A DNA stretch of 64,000 nucleotides from Candidatus Daviesbacteria bacterium (GTDB lineage Bacteria; Patescibacteriota; Microgenomatia; Daviesbacterales; UBA10151). Of the stretch, positions 3,701 to 33,636 are shown piece by piece. Below the pieces are notes generated by a model, which did no database searches, had not been told where the DNA came from, and saw only the letters and a list, made by a program, of their open reading frames with translations. A program made the position numbers and the translations under genes. The stretch covers positions 472,368-536,367 of the forward strand of contig JAQUSJ010000001.1 of assembly GCA_028715175.1 (NCBI GenBank), read 5' to 3'. Every line of letters begins with the position of its first letter. Position 1 is the stretch's first letter.

Positions 3701-4344
3701 AGTTGCCTCTTGAACAATTGCTGGTTTTCGAAAAAGATCTTTTGGGTTTTTACCTGCATGAACCCCCTTTTCTTGCAGCACTTCAAAAATTAACCAGGTT
3801 TGTATCTATCAAACTTTCCGATTTGAGCGAGGAAAGTATCGGGAAAACTTTGAAACTGGGAGGAGTTATTGTTGCGGTTAAAAAAGTATTAACCAAAAAA
3901 GCAAGCAAGGAAATGGCATTTGTTAAAATTTCCGATGGGATTTTTAGTTTAGAAGTGGTAGTTTTTCCCAAAATATTTGAAACAAGCAAAGAATTTTTGG
4001 TTTCGGATCAGGTTGTTTTAATCTCCGGACGTGTTGAGAAAAGAGAAGAGGAGCTTTCTTTAATTGTTGAAAAAATTGCCCCGTTTGATCCGGAGAGCGC
4101 GGGTGATCTGCAGCAAAATAGCTTAATGGTTGAGATTTATATTCCGGCAGGGGCAGATATATCGGTATTACAAAATATAAACAGAACTCTGCGGGGATTT
4201 CCGGGAGGCACGCCGGTTGCGTTATTTTTAAATAGCGACAAGGGTGTAAGACGTATGGATTTGCCGTTTTCTGTTGATCCGCAACCTTTACTCGAGGAAA
4301 AAGTTAAAGAGATTCTAGGCAAAGAGGCTTTTAAAATAGTCTAG
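781..4344 (+). CDS. dnaE: DNA polymerase III alpha subunit
   Basis: 1187 aa; N-terminal PHP domain (FVHLHGHTQYSLLDG), polymerase core and C-terminal OB fold; typical DnaE length. Confidence 0.95.
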   Translation: MTITKTIMPKFVHLHGHTQYSLLDGLSKVPKLIKTVKDLGMESIAITDHGVMYGAIEFYKACREAGVKPIVGVEMYVAKRSHKDKEGKLDSEPFHLTVLAKNYQGYLNLMKLTTIAHCDGYYYRPRVDKALLKEFHEGLIALSGCPAGEFVRSLNTRDPKKAEEVIKNYLSIFGEGNFYLELQSHPYQQSLDEAVDDTVKKDLQEILDIQTQTWSTVKQLSKKIGIPIVGTNDYHYVAKEDAQAQDALLCVQTGKLLSDVVRLRMIDTPDYFVKSPVEMAENFKDIPEALENTVKIAKLIDLEIPLGVARFPVFETPNKASSMEYLREITYQKAAEKLELTKEIKERLDFELSVIEKKKYADYFLVVADFMDWAHQRGIITNTRGSAAASMVLYCLGVTNLNPLGYLLPFERFLTVYRPSLPDIDVDIADDRRDEVIDYVMKKYGKDRVAHIVTFGTMMGRAAIRDVGRVMGMSYSDVDRIAKLVPPPHQGFHKPLGLAVKEVPDLQNLYRSDPQIKKLLDLAARIEGTVRHASVHAAGIVIAPDEITNFTPLQKESSGERLVSQYDMFAVEDAGLVKMDLLGIRNLSILGKAVEFVKENRGISIDLDKIPLDYKKAFELLAKGETMGVFQLEGSGMTRYVTELKPTSITDIQAMVALYRPGPLGVIPEYIARKHDPKKVKFFDPRMKDYTEASLGLLVYQDDVLLTAINIAGYSWEEADKFRKAMGKKIPSEMARQKDKFIEGCIKNGMRAEKAEELFAMIAPFAAYGFNKAHAASYAMIAYQTAYMKASFPVEFMAAVMTAESGDSDKIASAIEECKRLQIVVLPPDVNKSGIGFSLEKLKELSQADLERSLSVGESGIKQGIRFGLSAVKNVGISAIESIILAREDGEFVSLADLCSRVDTRLVNRKTLESLIKAGALDHLGSRAGQLLVLDSCLEQSHKQSRARLSGQVLLFDSEEDQGVFAVKLPDVAELPLEQLLVFEKDLLGFYLHEPPFLAALQKLTRFVSIKLSDLSEESIGKTLKLGGVIVAVKKVLTKKASKEMAFVKISDGIFSLEVVVFPKIFETSKEFLVSDQVVLISGRVEKREEELSLIVEKIAPFDPESAGDLQQNSLMVEIYIPAGADISVLQNINRTLRGFPGGTPVALFLNSDKGVRRMDLPFSVDPQPLLEEKVKEILGKEAFKIV

Positions 4345-5149: not shown

Positions 5150-6031
5150 TTATTTTTCCGCTACCACAAAGGGGATTTCTTCCCAGTCTTTAACTTTTCT
5201 AATTTTTTTATTAATTTCCCAAACTGTTTCCAAAAGTTTTGGATCAAGTTTTAAACTCTTAGCCCGGCCAATTAAGGCAACGATATCTTTAGGAAAACAT
5301 TTCCCCCCAAACCCTTTGGATGTAGTTACATCCAGGTGTGAGTTAAAAATCCGGCGGTCTGCCACAACAATGCTTTTAACTTCTTCATATTTAATACCTA
5401 AAGCCTGGCATAAATCATACATCTGATTGGCAAAAATTACCTTGGTGGCCAAAAAAGCATTAGCCATATATTTGACCATTTCGGCAGTTGTAGTATCTGT
5501 TTGGAAAACCTTGGTTTTCGGGAATCTTTGTCTGTATAAAGAGATCAATCTTCGGGAAACCGTATCGTTATTCGCTCCTACAACATTGCGGTCTGATTTT
5601 ATAAAATCCTCTAAATAATTTGCCTCTGTTAAAAATTCCGGGTTCATGGCAAAGTTGCTTTTTGGGTATTTTTTTTCTAAAGCAACAGTGGTGCCCGGTA
5701 CAACAGTTGATTTAATCACAATGATTTTGTCGGTATTGTCGGTATATTGGGTAATCTCTTTAATGTTTTCTTCGATGATGGAAAGGTCAATCCCCGACTC
5801 GTCTTCTTTCATCGGCGTGGGTAAACAAATAAAAATAAACTCGCTTGATGCAACTACGCTTTCTAAAGACTCGGTGTTTTTGTATTTGTCATAAAATCTA
5901 ATTTCATATTTATCTTTTATCTCCGGTTGGGAAAAGCCGTATGCCAGGGCCTGACCGACTATTCCGTAACCGATAATTCCAAGTTTGGCGGGGTTGATTA
6001 GTTCTGCGGAGTCCTCTTGTTGCTTATTCAT
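5150..6031 (-). CDS. UDP-glucose/GDP-mannose dehydrogenase family protein, short form lacking the C-terminal UDP-binding domain
   Basis: Start moved to ATG at 6031 (MNKQQ...). Rossmann GIIGYGIVG and catalytic GGKCFPKD motif present. 294 aa is shorter than canonical ~400 aa, so possibly truncated. Confidence 0.65.
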   Translation of the reverse strand: MNKQQEDSAELINPAKLGIIGYGIVGQALAYGFSQPEIKDKYEIRFYDKYKNTESLESVVASSEFIFICLPTPMKEDESGIDLSIIEENIKEITQYTDNTDKIIVIKSTVVPGTTVALEKKYPKSNFAMNPEFLTEANYLEDFIKSDRNVVGANNDTVSRRLISLYRQRFPKTKVFQTDTTTAEMVKYMANAFLATKVIFANQMYDLCQALGIKYEEVKSIVVADRRIFNSHLDVTTSKGFGGKCFPKDIVALIGRAKSLKLDPKLLETVWEINKKIRKVKDWEEIPFVVAEK

Positions 6032-13972: not shown

Positions 13973-14196
13973 TGAATGAGTAGTATACTGTAAACACCTT
14001 TATTCTTTCAATTGCTTTTTCTTGAGATGACAAGGTTTCCAAAAATATAATCCAGAAAACTTTCCCTTGAGTTAATCTTATATGATTCTTCTTTGATGGA
14101 TTTAATAGCCGGAGCATCGGTAGGAGCATCCCAAAGTATCACAAAATCCCACAGAAATGTTTTCATCAGAAATTTTTTGATTTTTAACATAAGGTT

Positions 14197-14316
14197 TTAT
14201 TCAGCTGAAGGGTAGGCTTAAGAATTGTTGAGAAAGAACGTTTTACATAAATGTAGCTTTCCCGATATTCTTAGATATTTAACTTTTAAGTTAATTCCTA
14301 CCCCCAGCCTGAATAA
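14197..14316. repeat. 120-bp element with nested inverted repeats (20-bp arms) in the rsmI-receiver intergenic region; MITE-like or structured RNA
   Basis: ttattcagctgaagggtagg (14197-14216) vs cctacccccagcctgaataa (14297-14316); inner IR cttaagaat/attcttag. Confidence 0.4.
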
Positions 14317-14386
14317 GTTAAACATATCATTAGATGAAATAATAATCTGTAATTTAAATAACAATCCGAAGTTTTGAGTAGAAAGT

Positions 14387-14767
14387 CTAATGATCTTCTG
14401 GCTGTAATACTTCACTAACTTGTTTAACAATATCAGCAAGTTTGACTTCGCTTTTAACTAAAAAGTCATAAACTCCAATCTCTATTGCTTCAGATACTTT
14501 CTTTTGGTCGCTTAAATTCGACAGAATAATTACAGGTACTGTTTCTCCCCATGGATCTTGGCGAAGTTTTTTCAACATGGTCAGACCGTTCATTTTGGGC
14601 AATAGAATATCGAGTAAAATTAAATCCGGTAAGTTTTGTAAAGCCTTTTTTATGCCATCTTCCGCACTGGTGGCCTCACTAACAATAAAGCCGGAATCTT
14701 TAAATTTGTCAGACAACAGTTCCAAAAGTACCTGTTCGTCTTCAATGATTAGAATTTGTTTTTTCAT
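14387..14767 (-). CDS. stand-alone response regulator receiver domain (CheY-like)
   Basis: 126 aa; ILIIEDE, phospho-acceptor D in LILLDILLP, and conserved K in KSEV; no output domain. Confidence 0.85.
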   Translation of the reverse strand: MKKQILIIEDEQVLLELLSDKFKDSGFIVSEATSAEDGIKKALQNLPDLILLDILLPKMNGLTMLKKLRQDPWGETVPVIILSNLSDQKKVSEAIEIGVYDFLVKSEVKLADIVKQVSEVLQPEDH

Positions 14768-16674
14768 ACTGCGAAAGGAAGCATCACCATAAAAGTACTT
14801 CCTTTATTTACCTTCGATTCCACAATAATATTTCCCTTTAGATAATTTACCATAGCTTTGGTGATATACAAGCCCAGCCCGGTGCCTTCAACTCGATTTT
14901 TAACATTATTAGCCCGATATATTTTTTGGAATATCTTTTCTTGGGCTGATCTTGGAATACCAATGCCAGAGTCGGTAACTTGTAAAATAAGTTTATCATC
15001 TAATTTCTGTATTTTTAAGCGGATCCAACCACCGCTTGATGTAAATTTGACAGCATTAGACAGCAGGTTTCTTAAAATTATATAGATGGCGTTTGAATAA
15101 GTTTTGTATGGTTTAATATCTTTGTCAAAGAAAAAGTTAAATTTTATTTTTTTATCCTTAATTCTGTCTTTTAAGTTTTCAATAACATTTGAAGCAATCT
15201 CGATAGGATCAATTTTTTCGTGTGTGTATGAATGCACACCCAGTTCGATTTTGGTGGTGGTTAATAGGTTGCTGGTTAGTTCAATCATGTTTTGGGTTTG
15301 TTTATATATTTTATCTAAACTTTTCTTTTGTGAGTTAGAATAGAGATTTTGGTCTTCGAAAAGGCGTTCCAAAGACCAGGCTACAGCAGAGAGTGGAGTC
15401 CGCAGTTCGTGCGAAGCCAGGGAAACAAATTCGTCTTTAGCCTGGTTAATTGCCAGTTGCTGGCTATAATCACGATAAACGCTAATAGCTCCTACTATGG
15501 CATTATCCAAAATCACCGGTGAAGAAGTAATAAGTAGAGGGAATTTATCTTTTTTAACCAGGAAATAAACTCCGCGAACTACTTGAGCGGTATTCAGCGC
15601 TAGTAATGTAGGATGCAATTCAGAAGGTATTAAATTATCTTGTTCGTCTTCCAGCTCCACTTGTTTAAAAATCGATTTGCCTAATATCTTTTGTACATTC
15701 CAGCCAAATAAGTCTTCGGTTTTTCTATTTGCCTTAATGATCACTCCATATTTATCAACAACTATTATTCCATCCCCGATACTTTCAAATAAAGCTTCTT
15801 GTTTGGCAAGCATTTCCTCTAAGGAATTATTTAAAAGTTCTAGTTTTTGGGCATAGTTAGTAAGCTGTTCTTCAGCTTTTTTAAGCTCGGTGATATCATG
15901 GGTCATGCCTATGGATTTAATAACCGTACCTGATTTATTTTTAATATGCTCGCATTTTTCGTGTACAATTCGGATTTCACTGGTATTTTTTCTAATAATC
16001 CGGTGAATTATTTCGTAGCCATCTAATTTTTTACGAAGGGATTCAGTATATGCAAGGTTTACTTTTTCCCGGTCATCAGGGTGGACTGTTTTAAGAAAAG
16101 CTTCATAAGTGGCTTTAAATTCTTGAGGTTTTAGACCAAATATCCGGTAGGCCTCATCCGACCAAGTTAATTTATTATTTAAAAGATCAAGTTCCCAACT
16201 GCCTAACTGAGCAATTTCCTGAGATCTTTTAAGTAGCCTTTCGTTCTCACGCAAGGCCTCCTCGGCCTGTTTGAGTTCGGTGATGTCCTGATTCATGCCA
16301 ATCCATTCCAAAACTTTGCCATTCCCGTCAAAAATCGGTACAGCGGTACTTTTAATAATTCGGTATTCTCCTTTGGCATTTAATTGTCTAAATTCAACGC
16401 GAGAAGGGGTTTTTGTCTTTAAACGGTGGCGCCAGACTTTTTTAAGGAGGTTTCTATCGTCCGCATGGACGGCAGAGAGCCAATTCCAACCAAGAAAATC
16501 CTTGTATTTTCTGCCGGTAAAAATTCGCCAAGATAGTGAGTCTTCGATAATACCTCCGGAAGCATCAGTCACCCAGATCGCCTCGCTCGAGACTTCGATC
16601 AGCCGCCTGAATCTCTCTTCGCTTCTTCTCAAAGCCTCTTCGGACTTAGTTAGTTTAGTATTTAAGCTTTTCAT
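14764..16674 (-). CDS. cytoplasmic multi-PAS sensor histidine kinase
   Basis: 636 aa; three PAS-like repeats; HisKA H-box HELRTPLSAV; HATPase_c N/G1/G2 boxes (LLSNAVKFT, DSGIGIP, GTGLGLYI); no TM segments. Confidence 0.9.
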   Translation of the reverse strand: MKSLNTKLTKSEEALRRSEERFRRLIEVSSEAIWVTDASGGIIEDSLSWRIFTGRKYKDFLGWNWLSAVHADDRNLLKKVWRHRLKTKTPSRVEFRQLNAKGEYRIIKSTAVPIFDGNGKVLEWIGMNQDITELKQAEEALRENERLLKRSQEIAQLGSWELDLLNNKLTWSDEAYRIFGLKPQEFKATYEAFLKTVHPDDREKVNLAYTESLRKKLDGYEIIHRIIRKNTSEIRIVHEKCEHIKNKSGTVIKSIGMTHDITELKKAEEQLTNYAQKLELLNNSLEEMLAKQEALFESIGDGIIVVDKYGVIIKANRKTEDLFGWNVQKILGKSIFKQVELEDEQDNLIPSELHPTLLALNTAQVVRGVYFLVKKDKFPLLITSSPVILDNAIVGAISVYRDYSQQLAINQAKDEFVSLASHELRTPLSAVAWSLERLFEDQNLYSNSQKKSLDKIYKQTQNMIELTSNLLTTTKIELGVHSYTHEKIDPIEIASNVIENLKDRIKDKKIKFNFFFDKDIKPYKTYSNAIYIILRNLLSNAVKFTSSGGWIRLKIQKLDDKLILQVTDSGIGIPRSAQEKIFQKIYRANNVKNRVEGTGLGLYITKAMVNYLKGNIIVESKVNKGSTFMVMLPFAV

Positions 16675-17984
16675 ACTTTCATCTCTTGATATATCCTAGA
16701 CTCTTTTCCTTCGTGATGAAGAAGAGTTCTGAATCCGCCGTCACCAAAGATATGGCGAAATCTTAAGTGGTTAAGAATATACCTTTGCGAAACCACAAAT
16801 GGTTCTAACTCCTCAAGTTTAATCAGTCCTGCTTCTATAGTTTCACTACCTTCCGGTAGAAAAAAGTAAGTCTGTAAAACTGGTATTTTAGCTTGAGCTC
16901 CTTTCCTTTCAAGAACTTCTGATATTCTTACACCAAAATTCATTGAGGCAATGTCTTCGTCTGAAAAGCCCACTGCTCTCATTGCTGCGGAACGGGTAGC
17001 TCTGCCTTCTGGAGTTAGGAATTGACTTATTAGCTTGTTGTAATCACCTGTTTTAGCAATCCCAATCTCCGCAATGTGACCGGGTCGAATGATGCCACCA
17101 AAAAGATCAGCGGTGTATTTAGGAGGATTATTAGTAACTGTATTTCCGTAACAGATATTCACTACTCCCGGCTGTTCTGCTAGTTGTTTATATCTGTTTT
17201 TATCTGGTAAATTTTTCAATTCTTCAAACTTTTTATGTATACGTACAATTTCAACGTTATCACCAAAAGCCGCTTTTAGATTTTTAGAAGACTCCCTAAG
17301 CATGTCCATACTACAGTCAATTATCACTACAGTCACCTTTCGCCCGCTTTCCACGACTGCTCTCAAACGTTCAATTTCTTTCTGACAATCACCTGGGCCA
17401 TAAATACAGTAAACAGTTGGATTTCTACCAAGATATTGAGCTAGATCTCCGTTCGCGTCTTTAACGCCAAGCGCTTTGGCTTGGTCTTTTTCGTCCGCAT
17501 TGCTTTTTTGGCGATTAGCTGATGCTAAGAATTGAAGCATAAGCCGTCCGGAATCTTTAGCCCTAGTCAACGCCCAAGAAGGTATGTTGCCATTGCAAGC
17601 GTAGAATAAAAATGCCGGACTCTTCAAGGATCTGCCAATTTTCCGAGCCCGTTTATACTCTAATAATCTACCAAACATACCTTCAGGCGAGAAATGCATT
17701 TCTCTTCTTTCTTCTGGTATTTTATTTATATAGTACTGAATCATATCCAAATATGGTCTACGAACATTTGGATGTAGTTTGACGAAAGTAAGTTCACATA
17801 ACTGCGATAGAATAGTATTATCCCGCAAAAATGGTGCCCATATCTCACGAAGGCGAGGATAATTAGGATCAGCTTCTAAAATCGGTCTAGCTTTCTTCGC
17901 CTGATCACTTATGGGTAATAGTTCGACAGGTTTTTTAAATAGGACAGGTCTTTCGGGACTTCCACCAAAATTTACTGCATACAT
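16671..17984 (-). CDS. Methyltransf_33 (EgtD-like) SAM-dependent methyltransferase homologue with a ~190-aa N-terminal extension of unknown function
   Basis: CIYGPGDCQKEIERL....VTVVIIDCSMDML resembles ELGSGsseKtr.LL....YvPvDIS; ICYGNTVTNNPP resembles FLGSTIGNLtP; recalled from memory, not searched. Confidence 0.4.
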   Translation of the reverse strand: MYAVNFGGSPERPVLFKKPVELLPISDQAKKARPILEADPNYPRLREIWAPFLRDNTILSQLCELTFVKLHPNVRRPYLDMIQYYINKIPEERREMHFSPEGMFGRLLEYKRARKIGRSLKSPAFLFYACNGNIPSWALTRAKDSGRLMLQFLASANRQKSNADEKDQAKALGVKDANGDLAQYLGRNPTVYCIYGPGDCQKEIERLRAVVESGRKVTVVIIDCSMDMLRESSKNLKAAFGDNVEIVRIHKKFEELKNLPDKNRYKQLAEQPGVVNICYGNTVTNNPPKYTADLFGGIIRPGHIAEIGIAKTGDYNKLISQFLTPEGRATRSAAMRAVGFSDEDIASMNFGVRISEVLERKGAQAKIPVLQTYFFLPEGSETIEAGLIKLEELEPFVVSQRYILNHLRFRHIFGDGGFRTLLHHEGKESRIYQEMKV

Positions 17985-17986
17985 TT

Positions 17987-18628
17987 CTACTGATACTCCT
18001 TTTTTAATAATTCAAAGTTTGGAATAGTGATAAAACGGTTGTGGTAAATAATCAGCTTTTTGTTTATGAGATTATTAATTTCAATGGTAACCCGCTCGCG
18101 CGACAATCCAGCCAAAGTGGCAATGTCCCGATGGGTAAACCAGTACGAAATTACTATGCTTCTTTTGTCCTTTTTTCCAAAATATTTAGCCAGATCCAAA
18201 ATAGTGGCTATCACTTGTTTCCGGGCATCACCAAAAATTTTGGTTTCCAACTTTTTCATAAGTTCTAAAGAAAGCGAGGTTAATTGTTGGGTTATTTCTG
18301 ATCTAGCTGCCGGATTTTTGGTTAAAAATTGATATAGCTTATTTTTTTCGCATGAATAAACTTCAACCGGTGTTAAGGACTCAAAGTAATAACCATTAAA
18401 GTCCCCATTATTCTCTAACCAAAGAGGGAATAGGGAAGAAGGAGCAAATATGTGAAGCGTCAATTCGTTTCCTTCTTGCGATAAGGTATAAAGTCTGACA
18501 TAACCCTGATTTAGATAAAAAACTGTATTTGTAGAAGTTTCCAATCGACCTACCTCCTGTTTTCTTCTGAAAAGCATAGGTTTAAATTGTTTCAAGAAAC
18601 TTTCCAGTTTAGGATACGCTGTATTCAT
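17987..18628 (-). CDS. Crp/Fnr family transcriptional regulator
   Basis: 213 aa; N-terminal cNMP-binding beta-roll; C-terminal HTH (RDIATLAGLSRERVTIEINNL). Confidence 0.8.
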   Translation of the reverse strand: MNTAYPKLESFLKQFKPMLFRRKQEVGRLETSTNTVFYLNQGYVRLYTLSQEGNELTLHIFAPSSLFPLWLENNGDFNGYYFESLTPVEVYSCEKNKLYQFLTKNPAARSEITQQLTSLSLELMKKLETKIFGDARKQVIATILDLAKYFGKKDKRSIVISYWFTHRDIATLAGLSRERVTIEINNLINKKLIIYHNRFITIPNFELLKKEYQ

Positions 18629-18764
18629 CTATAGAGAGATTACAAGAGAAAGTGTCAGGGCGAGTATAACACTTTAAGCGTTTAGCCTACAACCTAAAAG
18701 TCTTCCTCTATTTTCTGCTATATTTATTTTTAAATTTAATCTATACTGGTGACAATGTTATTTC

Positions 18765-18780
18765 TGTAATCTAGATCACA
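18765..18780. promoter_or_regulatory. CRP-consensus-like site TGTAATCTAGATCACA (TGTGA-N6-TCACA, 1 mismatch)
   Basis: Lies in the divergent crp/dedA intergenic region, about 140 bp upstream of the crp start. Confidence 0.5.
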
Positions 18781-18784
18781 AATT

Positions 18785-19393
18785 ATGCTGGAAATTGTGG
18801 CAGGGTGGATCATTGATGTTATCTCAACTCTCGGATATCCGGGCATTGTTATTACCATGGCTATTGAATCAGCTTTGATTCCGTTGCCTTCAGAAATTAT
18901 CATGCCATTTTCTGGCTATCTGGTATCTACAGGCAGGTTTGATCTTAACCTGGTGGCTTTGGCAGGAGCTTTCGGCAATGTTTTAGGGTCGTTAATTGCT
19001 TATGCTATCGGTTTTTATGGACATGAAAAATTAGTCAGAAGATTTATCAGAAAATTCGGCAAATGGATTTTAATTAGCGAAAAAGAGTTGGATGAAACCG
19101 AAGTTTTGCTTCATAGATTTAAGGATTTGGTAGTTTTGGGAAGCAGGGTGATACCGGGGATTAGGACAGTTATTTCCCTGCCTTGCGGGTTTGCAAAGCT
19201 GCCTTTGGGGAGGTTTATAGCATTAACTTTTATCGGGTCGCTTGTCTGGTCATATTTCCTGGCCTGGATTGGGTTTGTTTTAGGGCAAAACTGGAGAACA
19301 ATTGGCCCATATTTCCACAAAGCAGATGTAGTGATAGTGGTACTAATTATTGGAGTAGTTACCTTTTACATTTATCACAAAGTTAAAAAATAA
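18785..19393 (+). CDS. DedA/SNARE-associated (TVP38) family membrane protein
   Basis: 202 aa; GYPGIV...IES..IPLPSE..MPFSGYL DedA signature; multiple TM segments. Confidence 0.85.
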   Translation: MLEIVAGWIIDVISTLGYPGIVITMAIESALIPLPSEIIMPFSGYLVSTGRFDLNLVALAGAFGNVLGSLIAYAIGFYGHEKLVRRFIRKFGKWILISEKELDETEVLLHRFKDLVVLGSRVIPGIRTVISLPCGFAKLPLGRFIALTFIGSLVWSYFLAWIGFVLGQNWRTIGPYFHKADVVIVVLIIGVVTFYIYHKVKK

Positions 19394-19421
19394 ATTCTCA
19401 AAGGTTTCTCAATCAGGGTAA

Positions 19422-20786
19422 TCAGGGGATTTCTTGATCTGAATCCCTCCTCTCTCGATTCTCCCTCTCTCGCAGTTCAAGTAACTCCTGCATCGCTTTA
19501 CGATTACTCTCTCGCATTCGATTTCTCCACGACGTCTTATTATGTGCAGTTTTTGTATTTTGTTTTGTACCCTCTCTATGGGCTTTGTAAAATGGATAGT
19601 CATTTTTTATATCTCCATCTCCTGCAGTTTTTGTTCCTGGTGCTTGCAAACTACTTAAGACATTGGCCAAAAAATCCGGATTACTAAAGGCATTATGAAG
19701 ATTAACTAAATCTGTGCTGCGTTGATGCTTTCCGTGACCTAAATATGGCCATGCATCAACCTCTTCCATATATCCTGTATGGAATTTAGTTACCTCTACC
19801 ACCACAGCTATTCTTGGTTTACTATCACCGGTTGTTTGCCTAACTGCTATTGTTAGATATAAATTATCTTTTGTCTCTTCTGGCGTAAAACATTTTCCCA
19901 ATCTCATGCTTTCGCTTTTTTGATCGCATTGCCTCGCAAATTCAGCAAGATCAAATCCTGCAAATTTTAACTCAATTTCCCCATTCTGCAATAATCTAAT
20001 ATCAACCGGAATCCAAGTTCCTTCGAGAGGGAAAACTGCTCTTCTAGTCTCCTCACCTGCCGCCATTTCATTGCGTACAGGGCGTACAGGATAAGTTTGA
20101 ATCCTATCCCGCAATTCATCAAGAACTGCTTGGGGAGTATCCACAGTCGTTTTTGGAGTTTCTTGAGTGTTTGTTTCCTTCATCAGGTCTGCTGGGTTGA
20201 CTAGTCTGCCATTACTGACTACCTCTCTCCATCTGGCCGGCAGACTGAGTGGTCCAATGTATAAGCACTTATTTTTTGGATCATCAACCATCAGTAGTAC
20301 ATCATTTGATCCTAGACGTATTGCATCTATAGGCGGTGAGTTACTAGTTCTAATGCTAATTCCTGGTGGATTTCTTAATTCTGACTCAGATATTCCAGGC
20401 AACAGAAATAGTTTATTGGAATCTTCTACTTCTTCTGGAATAGGTAAAATAACAGAACTATTCCAATTAGGCAATACTTGCCTTATATTTAAAAAAAGAC
20501 TTTTATTGGTATCCCAAACAGAGTGATATCTAACTTTGGCTATTACTAAGCCACTAACAGATTCTGGGCAATCAGTAACAATTATTACTGGTAAACCCCC
20601 TAATCCTTCCATTTTCTGTAAAGCTGGAGTTGTCTCAGTACCTTGTTCCATAACGACTGTGGGAAAAAGAATCTGTTTAGGATCGATGTTCTTCACAAAA
20701 GGCCTACCTCGGAGTACTGCAGCTTCTCCTCGTATTCTCCTTGTAACTATATCAAGCAGACTAGCGTTTGATGATGTTTCTACCAT
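19422..20786 (-). CDS. hypothetical protein (454 aa, lysine-poor, Arg/Glu-rich C-terminal tail)
   Basis: Long ORF with non-native composition; no motif recognised; sits between the dedA 3' end and its diverged duplicate. Confidence 0.5.
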   Translation of the reverse strand: MVETSSNASLLDIVTRRIRGEAAVLRGRPFVKNIDPKQILFPTVVMEQGTETTPALQKMEGLGGLPVIIVTDCPESVSGLVIAKVRYHSVWDTNKSLFLNIRQVLPNWNSSVILPIPEEVEDSNKLFLLPGISESELRNPPGISIRTSNSPPIDAIRLGSNDVLLMVDDPKNKCLYIGPLSLPARWREVVSNGRLVNPADLMKETNTQETPKTTVDTPQAVLDELRDRIQTYPVRPVRNEMAAGEETRRAVFPLEGTWIPVDIRLLQNGEIELKFAGFDLAEFARQCDQKSESMRLGKCFTPEETKDNLYLTIAVRQTTGDSKPRIAVVVEVTKFHTGYMEEVDAWPYLGHGKHQRSTDLVNLHNAFSNPDFLANVLSSLQAPGTKTAGDGDIKNDYPFYKAHREGTKQNTKTAHNKTSWRNRMRESNRKAMQELLELRERENRERRDSDQEIP

Positions 20787-20832
20787 AATAATTTAAGATA
20801 AGATCGGATGATATCTTATAAGGTGAATTTAG

Positions 20833-20918
20833 TCAACATTTCTACAAAGCAGATGCAGCAATAGTGATTTTAATAATCGGAGCAATCATTTTCTATATCT
20901 ACCACAAGATTAAAAACT
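20833..20918 (+). repeat. diverged duplicate of the dedA 3' end (encodes FYKADAAIVILIIGAIIFYIYHKIKN*)
   Basis: About 73 percent nt identity to 19310-19393 (FHKADVVIVVLIIGVVTFYIYHKVKK*); same orientation. Confidence 0.7.
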
Positions 20919-20976
20919 AGGGATAATCCACAGTTTCTACCATCAGTTTCTGTCACTACGTTCAGGATGACAGTCT

Positions 20977-21594
20977 TTAGTTAAATCTTCTAATCACTGC
21001 AGAGCATTTACCTTGGATTTTAACATCTGTTGCATAAATAGGAGCCATAGAAGAATTGGCCGGTTCCAAACGGATCCGGTCAGCTTCCTTAAAGAATCTT
21101 TTTAAAGTGGCCAGGCCATTATCTAACAGGGCTACCACAATATCCCCGTCTGTGGCTGTTGCTTGTTCTTCAATAATAACGTAATCCCCGTCCAAAATCC
21201 CATCTTCGATCATCGAATCACCTTTGACTTGCAAAACATACGAACGTTTTTTGCCTGAAACCATATTGGGAGCAACTTTAATAGTGGCATCGGGATCAGT
21301 ATAGGTCATAATAGGTTGACCCGCGGCAATAAATCCCAAAACCGGAAGTTCAATTCCTTTTAGAGCGGAAGAAATTTGCTGGTCCAAAACCTCAATTCCT
21401 CTGACAGCCCCTTCAAATTTTTTAATGACGCCTTTTAGAACCAGAGCTTGGAGGTGTTCGTGTATTGTAGCCAGGGAAGAAACGCCGATCGCCTCGGCAA
21501 TCTCACCCAAAGTCGGTGAATAACCGTATTTGTCTATATATTGTTTTATGAAATCTAAAATTTGCTTTTGTCGGCGGTATAAAGTTATCGGCAT
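20977..21594 (-). CDS. lexA: LexA repressor
   Basis: 205 aa; N-terminal wHTH; S24 peptidase domain with catalytic S in GDSM and K in TLKRF; AG cleavage site in FIAAGQP. Confidence 0.9.
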   Translation of the reverse strand: MPITLYRRQKQILDFIKQYIDKYGYSPTLGEIAEAIGVSSLATIHEHLQALVLKGVIKKFEGAVRGIEVLDQQISSALKGIELPVLGFIAAGQPIMTYTDPDATIKVAPNMVSGKKRSYVLQVKGDSMIEDGILDGDYVIIEEQATATDGDIVVALLDNGLATLKRFFKEADRIRLEPANSSMAPIYATDVKIQGKCSAVIRRFN

Positions 21595-21638
21595 AGTATT
21601 TCTACATTACCAAAGATTACCCGAACTTGTCAACTAGG

Positions 21639-21657
21639 TTAAACTGTATCAGTTTAA
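21639..21657. promoter_or_regulatory. 19-bp perfect palindrome TTAAACTGTATCAGTTTAA between divergent lexA and the ECF sigma gene; candidate operator
   Basis: ttaaactg-tat-cagtttaa; the only strong palindrome in this 89-bp intergenic region. Confidence 0.35.
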
Positions 21658-21791
21658 GGTATTGAAATTTAAAGACTCATAGTTTGTATTTAGAGCTTAT
21701 TTTTGGTATGATCGCATTGCTAACTTTTCTAATGAAGGTTCATAAGCCTCAAAGTAGTCAAGAGAAAAATGACTATTCTTCGAAAGAAGAA

Positions 21792-22310
21792 ATGAGCCAC
21801 TTGGTTGCTTTAGCAAAAGCTGGAGATGTACAGGCTTTTGGCAAAGTTTATGACCGGTTAGTAAAAAGGGTCTATCGTTTTGTTCAGTTTAGGGTAGGCA
21901 TAAGGGAAGAGGTAGAGGATTTAACCGAAGAGATTTTTTTAAAAGCCTATGAGAAACTTGAAAGTTTTGATGAAAGCAAGCATGTTCCTTTTGAAGCTTG
22001 GCTCTTCAGAATTGCCAGGAATCATATAATCGATTACTATCGGACTGAAAAAAAGAGATTAATGATTGATCAGCGGGAAATCGCAGATGATTGTATTTCT
22101 ACCGAGGAGGCACTAGAAAAACAACTTTTGTTAAAGGATGTGATGGAAGCCTTAAAGAAACTACCTTTAAGCTATCAGGAAATTGTGATTTTGAAATTTA
22201 TAGAGGATCGGGACAATAAAGATATTGCCCATATTTTAAATAAACGTTGTGATCAGGTAAGAGTCTTGCAAAGCAGGGCCCTTAAAGCCTTAAAAAAGAT
22301 ATTAAAATGA
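21792..22310 (+). CDS. ECF-type RNA polymerase sigma factor (sigma-70 regions 2 and 4)
   Basis: Start set at ATG 21792 (MSHLVALAKAGDVQAF...) giving a typical 172-aa ECF sigma; the ORF track starts at 21684; region 2 FLKAYEKL...ARNHIIDYYR and region 4 HTH present. Confidence 0.8.
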   Translation: MSHLVALAKAGDVQAFGKVYDRLVKRVYRFVQFRVGIREEVEDLTEEIFLKAYEKLESFDESKHVPFEAWLFRIARNHIIDYYRTEKKRLMIDQREIADDCISTEEALEKQLLLKDVMEALKKLPLSYQEIVILKFIEDRDNKDIAHILNKRCDQVRVLQSRALKALKKILK

Positions 22311-31564: not shown

Positions 31565-31605
31565 CTTTTTTAGCCTTTTCGTCTTTTATTTGGTAGATGG
31601 TATAA

Positions 31606-33636
31606 TTGGCTGTTATGCCGAAATTCCAAATTGTTTCTGATTTTAAGCCAACCGGTGATCAGCCACAAGCCATTGGAAAACTTGCGACAGGTCTCAAAAA
31701 TGGGTCCAAACACCAGGTCCTTTTAGGGGTAACCGGCTCCGGTAAAACTTTCACCATAGCCAATGTTATTGAAAAAGTCCAAAAGCCAACTTTGGTTATT
31801 TCCCACAATAAGACTTTGGCAGGTCAGCTAGCCCAGGAATTTAAATCCCTTTTTCCCCGAAACGCCATTGAGTATTTTGTTTCCTACTACGATTATTATC
31901 AACCCGAAGCTTATATTCCCCAATCCGACACCTATATAGAAAAAGATGCCTCGATTAATGAGGAAATCGAAAAACTCAGGTTATCCACGACTGCCTCGCT
32001 TTTAACGCGCAAAGACACCGTGGTGGTGGCTTCTGTTTCCTGCATTTATAACCTGGGTTCTCCGGTTGAATACGGTCAGGCGATATTGGAAATTGGCAGC
32101 GGTATGAAAGCCGGAAGGCAAGCAGTGATGAAAATCCTGCAGAAAATGTATTACGAGAGAAACGATATTGATTTCCAAAGAGGTGCATACCGGGTGCGCG
32201 GTGATACTTTGGATATTTTCCCGCCGTATTTGGATCAAGGTTACAGGCTACAATTTTTAGGGGACAGGGTAGAGAAAGTAAGTCAACTCGAAGTTGTGAC
32301 AGGTCATGCCACAAAAATGCAAGGAGTACAAATTATTTATCCGGCAAAACACTACATTACTCCGGCACAGCGGATTGTCCCCGGAATAAAACAAATAGAG
32401 AAGGATTTAGAATCTAGAGTCAAGAGTCTAGAGTCTGGTGGAAAGCTGGTAGAAGCTCAAAGACTCTTACAAAGAACCCATTACGACTTGGAGATGATAA
32501 AAGAGTTTGGATATTGTAACGGGATTGAGAATTACTCCCGTTATTTTGATGGGAGAGAGCCGGGTGAGCCCCCTTTTACTTTGATGGATTATTTTCCCAA
32601 GGACTTTTTAACTATTATTGATGAATCCCATATTACTATTCCGCAAATCAGGGGGATGTATAACGGGGACCGTTCCAGAAAAGAAACTTTAATTGATTTT
32701 GGGTTTAGATTACCTTCTGCGCTGGATAACAGGCCTCTTAAATTTGATGAATTCCAGAGAAGGGTTAATCAGGTAATTTATGCTTCAGCCACACCTGATG
32801 ATTATGAAGTGTCTTTGGCGCAAACCTACAATCCCGGTTTGTCAAGCCAAATTCAAACCGGGATTGAAAACGTAAATGGTATAGCAGAGCAATTGGTTAG
32901 GCCTACAGGAATTCTGGATCCGGAAATCAGTATAAGACCCACTCAAGGGCAGATAGAAGATTTAATACGGGAAATCAAATTGCGGGTAGTGAAACATGAA
33001 CGTACCCTGGTAACAACACTGACAAAACGTATGGCTGAAGACTTAACAGATTATCTGGCTGAAAAAGGAATTAAGGTACAGTATTTGCACTCTGACGTGG
33101 CTACGCTTGAACGTTCTGATGTGCTGCAATCCTTAAGACTTGGTGAATATGATGTGATTGTAGGTATAAATTTGCTCAGAGAAGGGTTGGATTTGCCGGA
33201 AGTTTCGCTGGTAGCTATTTTGGACGCTGATAAAGAAGGGTTCTTAAGATCTAAAACTTCCCTTATTCAGACCATGGGACGGGCTGCAAGACACGTTAAG
33301 GGTAAGGTAATCATGTACGCGGAGGCGGTAACCGGTTCAATAAAAGCTGCAATTGAGGAGGTAGAGAGGAGAAGAAAGTACCAGGAAGCATATAACAAAA
33401 AGCACCATATTATTCCCAAAAGTATTGAAAAAGCTTTGAGGGAAAGACTGGTTGAAAAAGTAGAGGAATTGGAAGAAAAGTTGGGTAAAAGGGATCTGAC
33501 AATTGATGACATTCCTCCCAACGAGCGGAAAAAGATGGTTAGAAATCTGGAGGCCCAGATGAGGGAAGCAGCAGAGCTTTTAGACTTCGAAGAAGCAGCC
33601 AAACTTCGGGATCAGATTAAGGAATTGAGCATGTAG
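31606..33636 (+). CDS. uvrB: excinuclease ABC subunit B
   Basis: 676 aa; Walker A GVTGSGKT, DEAD-like helicase motifs, beta-hairpin region, C-terminal UVR domain. Confidence 0.95.
   Translation: MAVMPKFQIVSDFKPTGDQPQAIGKLATGLKNGSKHQVLLGVTGSGKTFTIANVIEKVQKPTLVISHNKTLAGQLAQEFKSLFPRNAIEYFVSYYDYYQPEAYIPQSDTYIEKDASINEEIEKLRLSTTASLLTRKDTVVVASVSCIYNLGSPVEYGQAILEIGSGMKAGRQAVMKILQKMYYERNDIDFQRGAYRVRGDTLDIFPPYLDQGYRLQFLGDRVEKVSQLEVVTGHATKMQGVQIIYPAKHYITPAQRIVPGIKQIEKDLESRVKSLESGGKLVEAQRLLQRTHYDLEMIKEFGYCNGIENYSRYFDGREPGEPPFTLMDYFPKDFLTIIDESHITIPQIRGMYNGDRSRKETLIDFGFRLPSALDNRPLKFDEFQRRVNQVIYASATPDDYEVSLAQTYNPGLSSQIQTGIENVNGIAEQLVRPTGILDPEISIRPTQGQIEDLIREIKLRVVKHERTLVTTLTKRMAEDLTDYLAEKGIKVQYLHSDVATLERSDVLQSLRLGEYDVIVGINLLREGLDLPEVSLVAILDADKEGFLRSKTSLIQTMGRAARHVKGKVIMYAEAVTGSIKAAIEEVERRRKYQEAYNKKHHIIPKSIEKALRERLVEKVEELEEKLGKRDLTIDDIPPNERKKMVRNLEAQMREAAELLDFEEAAKLRDQIKELSM

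Follow-up and report, generated by a model that had tools for sequence, protein, structure and literature searches.

A displaced dedA 3' end and a one-gene insertion at the dedA/lexA junction of a Candidatus Daviesbacteria genome

The window analysed here is a stretch of 64,000 nt from a metagenome-assembled genome of Candidatus Daviesbacteria (candidate phyla radiation, CPR; Microgenomates). Between two of its convergent genes, dedA and lexA, lie a single open reading frame (ORF) for a protein of 454 amino acids (aa), called ORF454 hereafter, and a second, incomplete copy of the 3' end of dedA. The dedA ORF itself (18785..19393, + strand) is intact and encodes a 202-aa protein of the DedA/VTT family, as an earlier note made from the sequence alone had said (PF09335, VTT_dom; E = 3e-18, 66.9 bits versus a Pfam cut-off of 33.9 bits). 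It shares PF09335 with the UptA undecaprenyl-phosphate transporters, and its best NCBIfam matches, over the full length, are to UptA models; it differs from them in score (NF052604, 126 bits versus an equivalog cut-off of 250 bits), a level that marks it as UptA-like and does not establish functional orthology to UptA.

The last part of dedA recurs downstream in the same orientation. Positions 19302-19392 (copy 1) and 20829-20919 (copy 2) align over 91 nt without a gap, with 66 identical nucleotides (73%; blastn E = 7e-9), whereas the runner-up gapless match to the dedA end within the window reaches 45/91 (z = 9.6). The longest identical run, of 12 nt (ACAAAGCAGATG, 19317-19328 and 20844-20855), is close to the 5' edge of the repeat. 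Copy 1 (+ strand) is the end in use: it encodes the last transmembrane helix and the basic tail of the protein (FHKADVVIVVLIIGVVTFYIYHKVKK) and terminates in frame at a TAA codon (19391-19393). Copy 2 (20829..20920, + strand) consists of 28 codons and a stop; it is in register from 20837/20840, is translated as FYKADAAIVILIIGAIIFYIYHKIKN and terminates in frame at a TAG codon (20918-20920). No in-frame start codon follows the stop at 20819-20821, and copy 2 is accordingly the leftover of a gene end rather than a gene in its own right. The repeat, its orientation, its identity of ~73% and the separate stop codons had all been recognized in the earlier note; only the end of copy 2, given there as 20918, had to be moved by 2 nt. 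No other gene end is duplicated in the window, dedA being the single case.

ORF454 (19422..20786, - strand; NCBI PHE48_02555, hypothetical protein, on a contig of 743,708 bp) is, as had been reported, the only ORF between the two copies and hence the sole cargo gene. A promoter-like region precedes it at the right edge of the inserted module (20798..20836, - strand); it contains TTGACT-17-TATCAT, the best sigma-70-like promoter match in 18600-21800 (10/12). The 7-bp inverted repeat previously spotted just upstream of the ORF454 start is indeed present (ATAAGAT-N8-ATCTTAT, 20798-20819) and extends across the -10 hexamer of this match. It is too short to be significant alone, and only its right half is kept in the one homologous locus (L082, see below). 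The description of ORF454 as atypical held for its Arg/Glu-rich C-terminal tail and less so for the rest, which is weakly atypical in composition: GC content is 0.399 versus 0.395 for the window and, in comparison to the 47 other ORFs, z-scores are −1.6 for GC at third codon positions, −1.0 for Lys (5.3%) and +1.5 for Arg (7.7%). Beyond copy 2, a spacer of 56 nt (20921..20976) leads from the dedA remnant to the stop of lexA (20977..21594, - strand), which runs in the same direction as ORF454 and encodes the Pfam domains LexA_DNA_bind and Peptidase_S24.

The convergent dedA-lexA pair is widely kept in relatives. The earlier note had proposed a search for an empty dedA site, and such sites were found in four independent Daviesbacteria lineages (L001, L087/88, L089-91 and L092/93), where the gap between the two genes is −5 to +25 nt versus 1589 nt in the window. 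Because dedA and lexA abut in these lineages, the 1.5-kb ORF454 block is, on the evidence of gene order, an insertion at the dedA/lexA junction. The closest relative (L083/L084; GCA_028712705.1) shares the genes upstream with 90-99% protein identity and has a different module at the junction. Its LexA is 99% identical to that of the window (90-91% for L001, L087 and L089), and lexA thus forms the conserved right flank of a variable slot: homology between the window and L083 resumes at 20984, inside the lexA 3' end, and the 56-nt spacer is without counterpart in L083.

On the left side, homology to L083 breaks within dedA. Nine mismatches were counted in 18785-19272 (488 nt, 98% identity), versus ~32% mismatch from 19273 to the stop. 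Taken by region, identity between the window and L083 is 453/462 (98%) in the dedA body, 55/66 (83%) in the segment preceding the tail and 52/78 (67%) in the tail; the corresponding values for either of them versus outgroup species are ~77, 67-80 and 60-78%. The tails of the window and L083 are as distant from each other as those of different species; copy 1, at 67%, is no closer to the L083 tail than outgroup species are (69-78%). Because identity to L083 drops from 98% to 67% from ~19273 on, the end now attached to dedA appears foreign-like (the last ~40 codons), the body (18785-~19272) being native. The displaced end behaves differently. The L083 tail matches copy 2 in 61/75 positions (81%) versus 50/75 for copy 1, and the L087 tail in 64/75 versus 59/75. 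At the protein level, copy 1 does not exceed 21/26 identical residues to any of 120 DedA relatives, while copy 2 is near the family consensus, sharing 21-23 of 26 residues with several of them. Copy 2 also lies convergent to lexA, i.e. in the position of the intact dedA end in the empty-site genomes. It appears from these comparisons that copy 2 is the more native-like end and copy 1 a foreign-like replacement. The question raised earlier, which of the two ends is native, is therefore answered in part: copy 2 is nearer to the relatives, but its identity to the L083 tail does not go beyond 81%.

The two copies were also compared by the method of Nei and Gojobori over 26 codons. The proportion of differences is 0.72 at synonymous sites (pS) and 0.147 at nonsynonymous sites (pN; Fisher P = 2e-5). 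Since synonymous changes dominate, the two ends diverged under purifying selection, each as the working end of a gene in its own lineage. As far as sequence comparison goes, the two dedA ends are xenologous, copy 1 being xenologous to the body it completes, and dedA is chimeric. The proposal that an insertion in the 3' end of dedA had brought a replacement end is thus borne out by the empty sites and by the contrast between body and end. DedA homologues of 178-181 aa, considered as possible C-terminal truncations, were rejected as such; they reflect differences in N-terminal start calls.

ORF454 is a real, conserved gene, although its family is small. An HMMER scan of 1.84 billion representative proteins returned two credible relatives, P0002 (460 aa, 44% identity, E = 2e-72) and P0004 (492 aa, 27% identity, E = 2e-4), so that the family has three members; a third match, P0003, was rejected as repetitive and spurious. 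A word-indexed search of 5.8 billion proteins returned only ORF454 itself and P0004. No match was obtained in Pfam, NCBIfam, PHROGs, PADLOC or PDB sequences, with either the single sequence or the profile, nor in viral contigs, JGI metagenomes, phages or plasmids, the tblastn search of phage and plasmid databases advised by the earlier note included.

The gene for P0002 (in L082) starts 56 nt past the lexA stop, on the same strand as lexA, and no dedA-end repeat accompanies it. It is followed by genes for a DedA paralogue, Crp, a PAS histidine kinase and a response regulator and by rsmI, a neighbourhood like that of the window. The L082 locus is without a UptA-type dedA; the DedA paralogue (1537-2160, 207 aa) shows 26% identity, has an unrelated tail and lies on the strand opposite to that of the window dedA, co-directional with the ORF454 homologue and with the Crp, kinase and regulator genes. 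L082 shares about 38 nt upstream of the ORF454 start, up to the -35 hexamer, where the homology breaks off and the dedA remnant starts; the right edge of the module is therefore placed at ~20836. In L081, the gene for P0004 is flanked by one for a predicted protein of 203 aa and by an AbrB/MazE-like antitoxin gene. The window and L082 have ORF454, and the sister L083 and L089 do not, the window, L082 and L089 being roughly equidistant. The patchy distribution points to a history of gain and loss by exchange, as opposed to stable inheritance.

All three family members possess a basic or charged C-terminal helix. The full-length AF2 model of ORF454 is poor (predicted local distance difference test score, pLDDT, of 49), and a Foldseek search against PDB gave nothing significant. 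Residues ~212-388, in the C-terminal half, gave a weak structural match, and only to the SRPBCC/Bet v 1-like helix-grip fold. ORF454 is a soluble protein that has a charged helix at its C terminus and may contain a helix-grip-like domain. A role in the envelope or as a lipid carrier, suggested by the DedA and lexA neighbours of two of the three members and by the putative lipid-binding-type fold, is speculative. A PD-(D/E)xK motif and Toprim-like strands, read by eye in ORF454, were rejected because the residues are not kept in P0004.

Control of ORF454 by the SOS response was also considered. It is unsupported, because no promoter motif of the lexA type is shared upstream: both the lexA-promoter motif TTCGGGTAATCTTTGGTA and the palindrome AAACTGTATCAGTTT are absent there. 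Transcription may read through from lexA into ORF454. As to the motifs themselves, TTCGGGTAATCTTTGGTA is kept in relatives and recurs upstream of uvrB at 31578-31595, not near ORF454. The lexA promoter spacer TTGACA-agTTCGGGTAATCTTTGGTAatgt (21608-21625, - strand) is conserved in many relatives, and a related sequence, TTCGTCTTTTATTTGGTA, occupies 31578-31595 (+ strand), just upstream of uvrB (31606-33636); agTTCGGGTAATCTTTGGTAatgt and TTCGTCTTTTATTTGGTA are candidates for the LexA operator, or for a signature of SOS promoters, in this clade. The perfect 6-3-6 palindrome AAACTGTATCAGTTT (21641-21655) lies in the intergenic region between the divergent lexA and extracytoplasmic function (ECF) sigma factor genes and occurs once in the window; in L083 it is partly kept, as AATTGATATAGTTT.

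The dedA/lexA junction holds different cargo in different genomes. In L083 and L084 it contains a 0.7-kb module (L083 10679-11288) encoding a DUF5678 protein (63 aa, E = 3e-5) and a retropepsin-like aspartyl protease (142 aa, DSG motif, E = 1e-3). In L007 (6599-8111) the genes there are for a Rad52/22-family protein (153 aa, E = 2e-12) and a 205-aa ORF, in L002 there is a 68-aa ORF, and in L086 a GIY-YIG fragment lies directly downstream of dedA, on a contig that stops before any lexA; more distant relatives have an NRAMP-like transporter gene downstream of dedA. Because the cargo differs from genome to genome, the junction is, on this comparative evidence, a hotspot for small accessory genes. 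A second dedA end at the junction was found in the window only, and in none of the ~15 other genomes examined that share the dedA-lexA synteny. Some further observations concern the cargo and its surroundings. A pair similar to that of L083 occurs in L092 (11779-12377; a 64-aa protein and a 134-aa Asp_protease_2 protein), and the DUF5678 and retropepsin-like pair looks like a small mobile two-gene module. The small GIY-YIG ORFs of L086, whose DedA is 88% identical, lie at 4008-4283 (beyond rsmI, on the upstream side) and at 5762-5935 (at the contig end) and could be free-standing homing-endonuclease-like genes. Genes for Y1 transposases of the IS200 type are found near the lexA/uvr neighbourhood in L083 (19932-20582) and L092 (7866-8537), and none was found in 12.7-33.6 kb of the window. 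Finally, a dedA 69% identical to the Daviesbacteria gene is present in an unrelated context (L004, 5893-6612) on a high-GC contig labelled Chloroflexota, which could reflect horizontal transfer or a chimeric contig.

The reading that we favour, with a probability of about 0.6, is that 19273-20836 is horizontally acquired DNA, comprising a dedA 3' end from another lineage and ORF454 with its own promoter, which displaced the resident gene end by recombination. No integrase, transposase, recombinase or other mobility gene was found in 12.7-33.6 kb (~10 kb around the insertion), as the earlier note had stated for integrases. The route that we infer as the most likely is homology-facilitated illegitimate recombination. 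Incoming DNA would have paired homologously in the conserved dedA body, with a crossover at ~19247-19272; on the far side an illegitimate join would have formed at ~20836/20837, inside the resident dedA end. The short resident stretch between crossover and join would have been lost and the remainder of the resident end displaced downstream, where it persists as copy 2 beside lexA. As a complete gene end would have come with the incoming piece, dedA would have remained functional. A later transfer of the whole block (copy 1, ORF454, copy 2 and spacer) from one close strain to another, by homologous recombination within dedA and lexA, may have followed, which would account for the identity of copy 2 to the L083 tail falling short of 98%.

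Several points weigh against this scenario. If both copy 2 and the L083 tail were native, 98% identity would be expected instead of 81%, and at least one further exchange has therefore to be assumed; the L083 tail may itself have been exchanged, arriving with the module of that genome. The outgroups (~77%) are too distant to tell in which of the two, the window or L083, the left breakpoint arose by recombination. No donor, i.e. a tail of the copy-1 type (ADVVIVVLIIGVVTF) with ORF454 and without copy 2, was found in the collections searched, and such a donor would be needed to show microhomology at the illegitimate junction. The 12-nt identical run ACAAAGCAGATG could be an att-type core. These organisms are not known to undergo natural transformation. 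With three ORF454 members only, inferences from gene context are thin.

The anatomy of the locus is also that expected of a site-specific integrative element at the dedA 3' end, or of its decayed remnant, whose integrase was lost or acted in trans. The duplicated dedA end flanks the insert, with dedA kept whole by the proximal copy, relatives have empty sites, and the 12-nt run is found close to the 5' edge of the repeat. In E. coli, icd is likewise completed by an end borne on e14 (or phage 21), with the original C-terminal fragment left beyond the element as the pseudogene icdC and mostly conservative differences between the two (PMC13626634). However, e14 is a 15-kb prophage with an integrase and SOS-induced excision, whereas the dedA insert is 1.5 kb with one ORFan and no recombinase, and its copies are 73% identical. 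Such an insert, of one gene and a promoter, has no room for element functions, and no integrase, transposase or other recognized domain was detected in it, ORF454 included, or within ~10 kb. Moreover, divergence from L083, whose own tail may have been exchanged too, begins 30-55 nt upstream of the repeat and not at the 12-nt run, ORF454 has neither matches nor further copies in the viral, phage, plasmid and metagenome collections, its one close homologue, P0002, is placed 18 nt beyond the stop of lexA and has no repeat, and in other genomes unrelated cargo occupies the junction with no second tail. A self-integrating element or decayed island, as suggested in the earlier note, is consequently a doubtful explanation, and recombinational displacement of the gene end at a hotspot is the likelier of the two. 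A one-gene selfish module, in which ORF454 would be a recombinase or homing-type nuclease of unrecognized fold and the module would target the junction in CPR bacteria, with co-conversion of the flanking dedA end, and bring a spare dedA end so that the host gene survives insertion, is much less probable still, and nothing was seen to indicate that ORF454 mediates insertion. It would fit the location of two of the three family members directly downstream of lexA and beside a DedA-family gene, the sharp module edge at the promoter, the foreign tract in dedA, which resembles a co-conversion tract, and the unrelated context of P0004 beside an antitoxin gene; the charged C-terminal helix common to the three could conceivably bind nucleic acid. 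Yet neither a motif nor a fold typical of nucleases or recombinases was detected, the candidate acidic motifs are not kept in P0004, structure searches yield weak helix-grip matches only, three members in ~15 billion proteins are unlike a successful selfish element, and homing normally leaves no duplicated gene end.

Two explanations would dispense with horizontal input. A local duplication of the dedA end, or a tandem paralogue that decayed in place, would account for copies in direct orientation only 1.5 kb apart, and a different DedA paralogue does occupy this position in L082. That paralogue, though, shows 26% identity, has an unrelated tail and is encoded on the opposite strand, and no second UptA-type dedA or tail was found between dedA and lexA in any relative (~15 syntenic genomes), which leaves the paralogue remnant considered in the earlier note unsupported. 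The saturation of synonymous sites with few and conservative amino-acid changes (pS 0.72, pN 0.15) would not be expected of a copy in decay since a local duplication, the fall in identity to L083 from 98% in the dedA body to 67% at its end is a further point against, and an origin in place is largely refuted. That the source is a metagenome-assembled genome raises the prospect of an assembly artefact, which is the least probable of all: an identical structure over 5,875 nt was recovered in a separate Logan assembly (run SRR22315506, possibly from the same reads), repeats of 73% identity with a longest identical run of 12 nt do not cause mis-joins, and the reading frames are intact.

Exchange of blocks has affected the neighbourhood upstream of dedA as well. 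Between rsmI and dedA lies a 4.8-kb block (13973-18784) with all genes on the minus strand, coding for a response regulator (14391-14767), a PAS histidine kinase, a methyltransferase-like protein of 437 aa and a Crp-like regulator. It is present in L083, L089-91 and L082, whereas rsmI and dedA are adjacent and divergent in L001, L002, L003, L007, L087 and L092. A single 6.9-kb island with its own dedA (13973-20832) was considered and rejected, as there is no native dedA 5' fragment beside rsmI and as L089-91 have the cassette of response regulator, kinase and Crp genes together with an empty dedA/lexA junction. For the latter reason the 4.8-kb block and the ORF454 insertion are regarded as independent. 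Within the block, the gene for the 437-aa protein (16671-17984, - strand) shows 29% identity over 309 aa to a 459-aa counterpart in L083 (7818-9197), while on either side of it identity is 92% for the kinase and 99% for Crp; the slot is 1.3 kb from dedA. Such a second swapped slot argues that cassette exchange by recombination is active in this neighbourhood.

Homology-facilitated illegitimate recombination was proposed for the displacement of Rhs C-terminal ends and for the orphan immunity arrays of the Vibrio cholerae type VI secretion system (T6SS) (PMC5361080), and that paper cites PMC2935791, PMC122324 and PMC122325 for the model. The dedA locus shares with these systems a conserved 5' body that serves as an anchor, a new 3' end that comes from another lineage together with an accompanying gene and an old end left downstream as a start-less orphan (PMC5361080). 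It differs in that dedA encodes a housekeeping-type membrane transporter instead of a polymorphic toxin and in that the exchange involves just the last transmembrane helix; ORF454, a gene on the opposite strand, does not confer immunity, and one displaced end is present, not an array. As a polymorphic toxin/immunity module (Rhs, CdiA or T6SS effector-immunity type) the locus does not qualify: no toxin domain was found, and ORF454 has no match in PADLOC or Pfam. With flexible genomic islets it has in common one conserved junction of convergent genes, varied small modules and sharp identity breakpoints in the flanking genes. Ordinary islet exchange, however, leaves no duplicated gene end, and the dedA duplication needs one illegitimate or site-specific join. 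The event at dedA and ORF454 is thus of a known kind, a clean but ordinary scar of horizontal transfer, although both the lineage and the target gene are unusual, and it represents neither a new class of element nor a new mechanism.

The locus provides, for an uncultivated lineage of the CPR/Patescibacteria, a clearly resolved case in which foreign DNA was captured in an essential-type gene without inactivating it, with the old end left behind as a datable scar. The different module of the sister genome and the empty sites mark the dedA/lexA junction as a recombination hotspot and speak for cassette exchange between close Daviesbacteria populations. The case also draws attention to a family of conserved but very rare proteins with three members, two of them beside lexA and a DedA-family gene, and it bears on how accessory genes are acquired in small CPR genomes.

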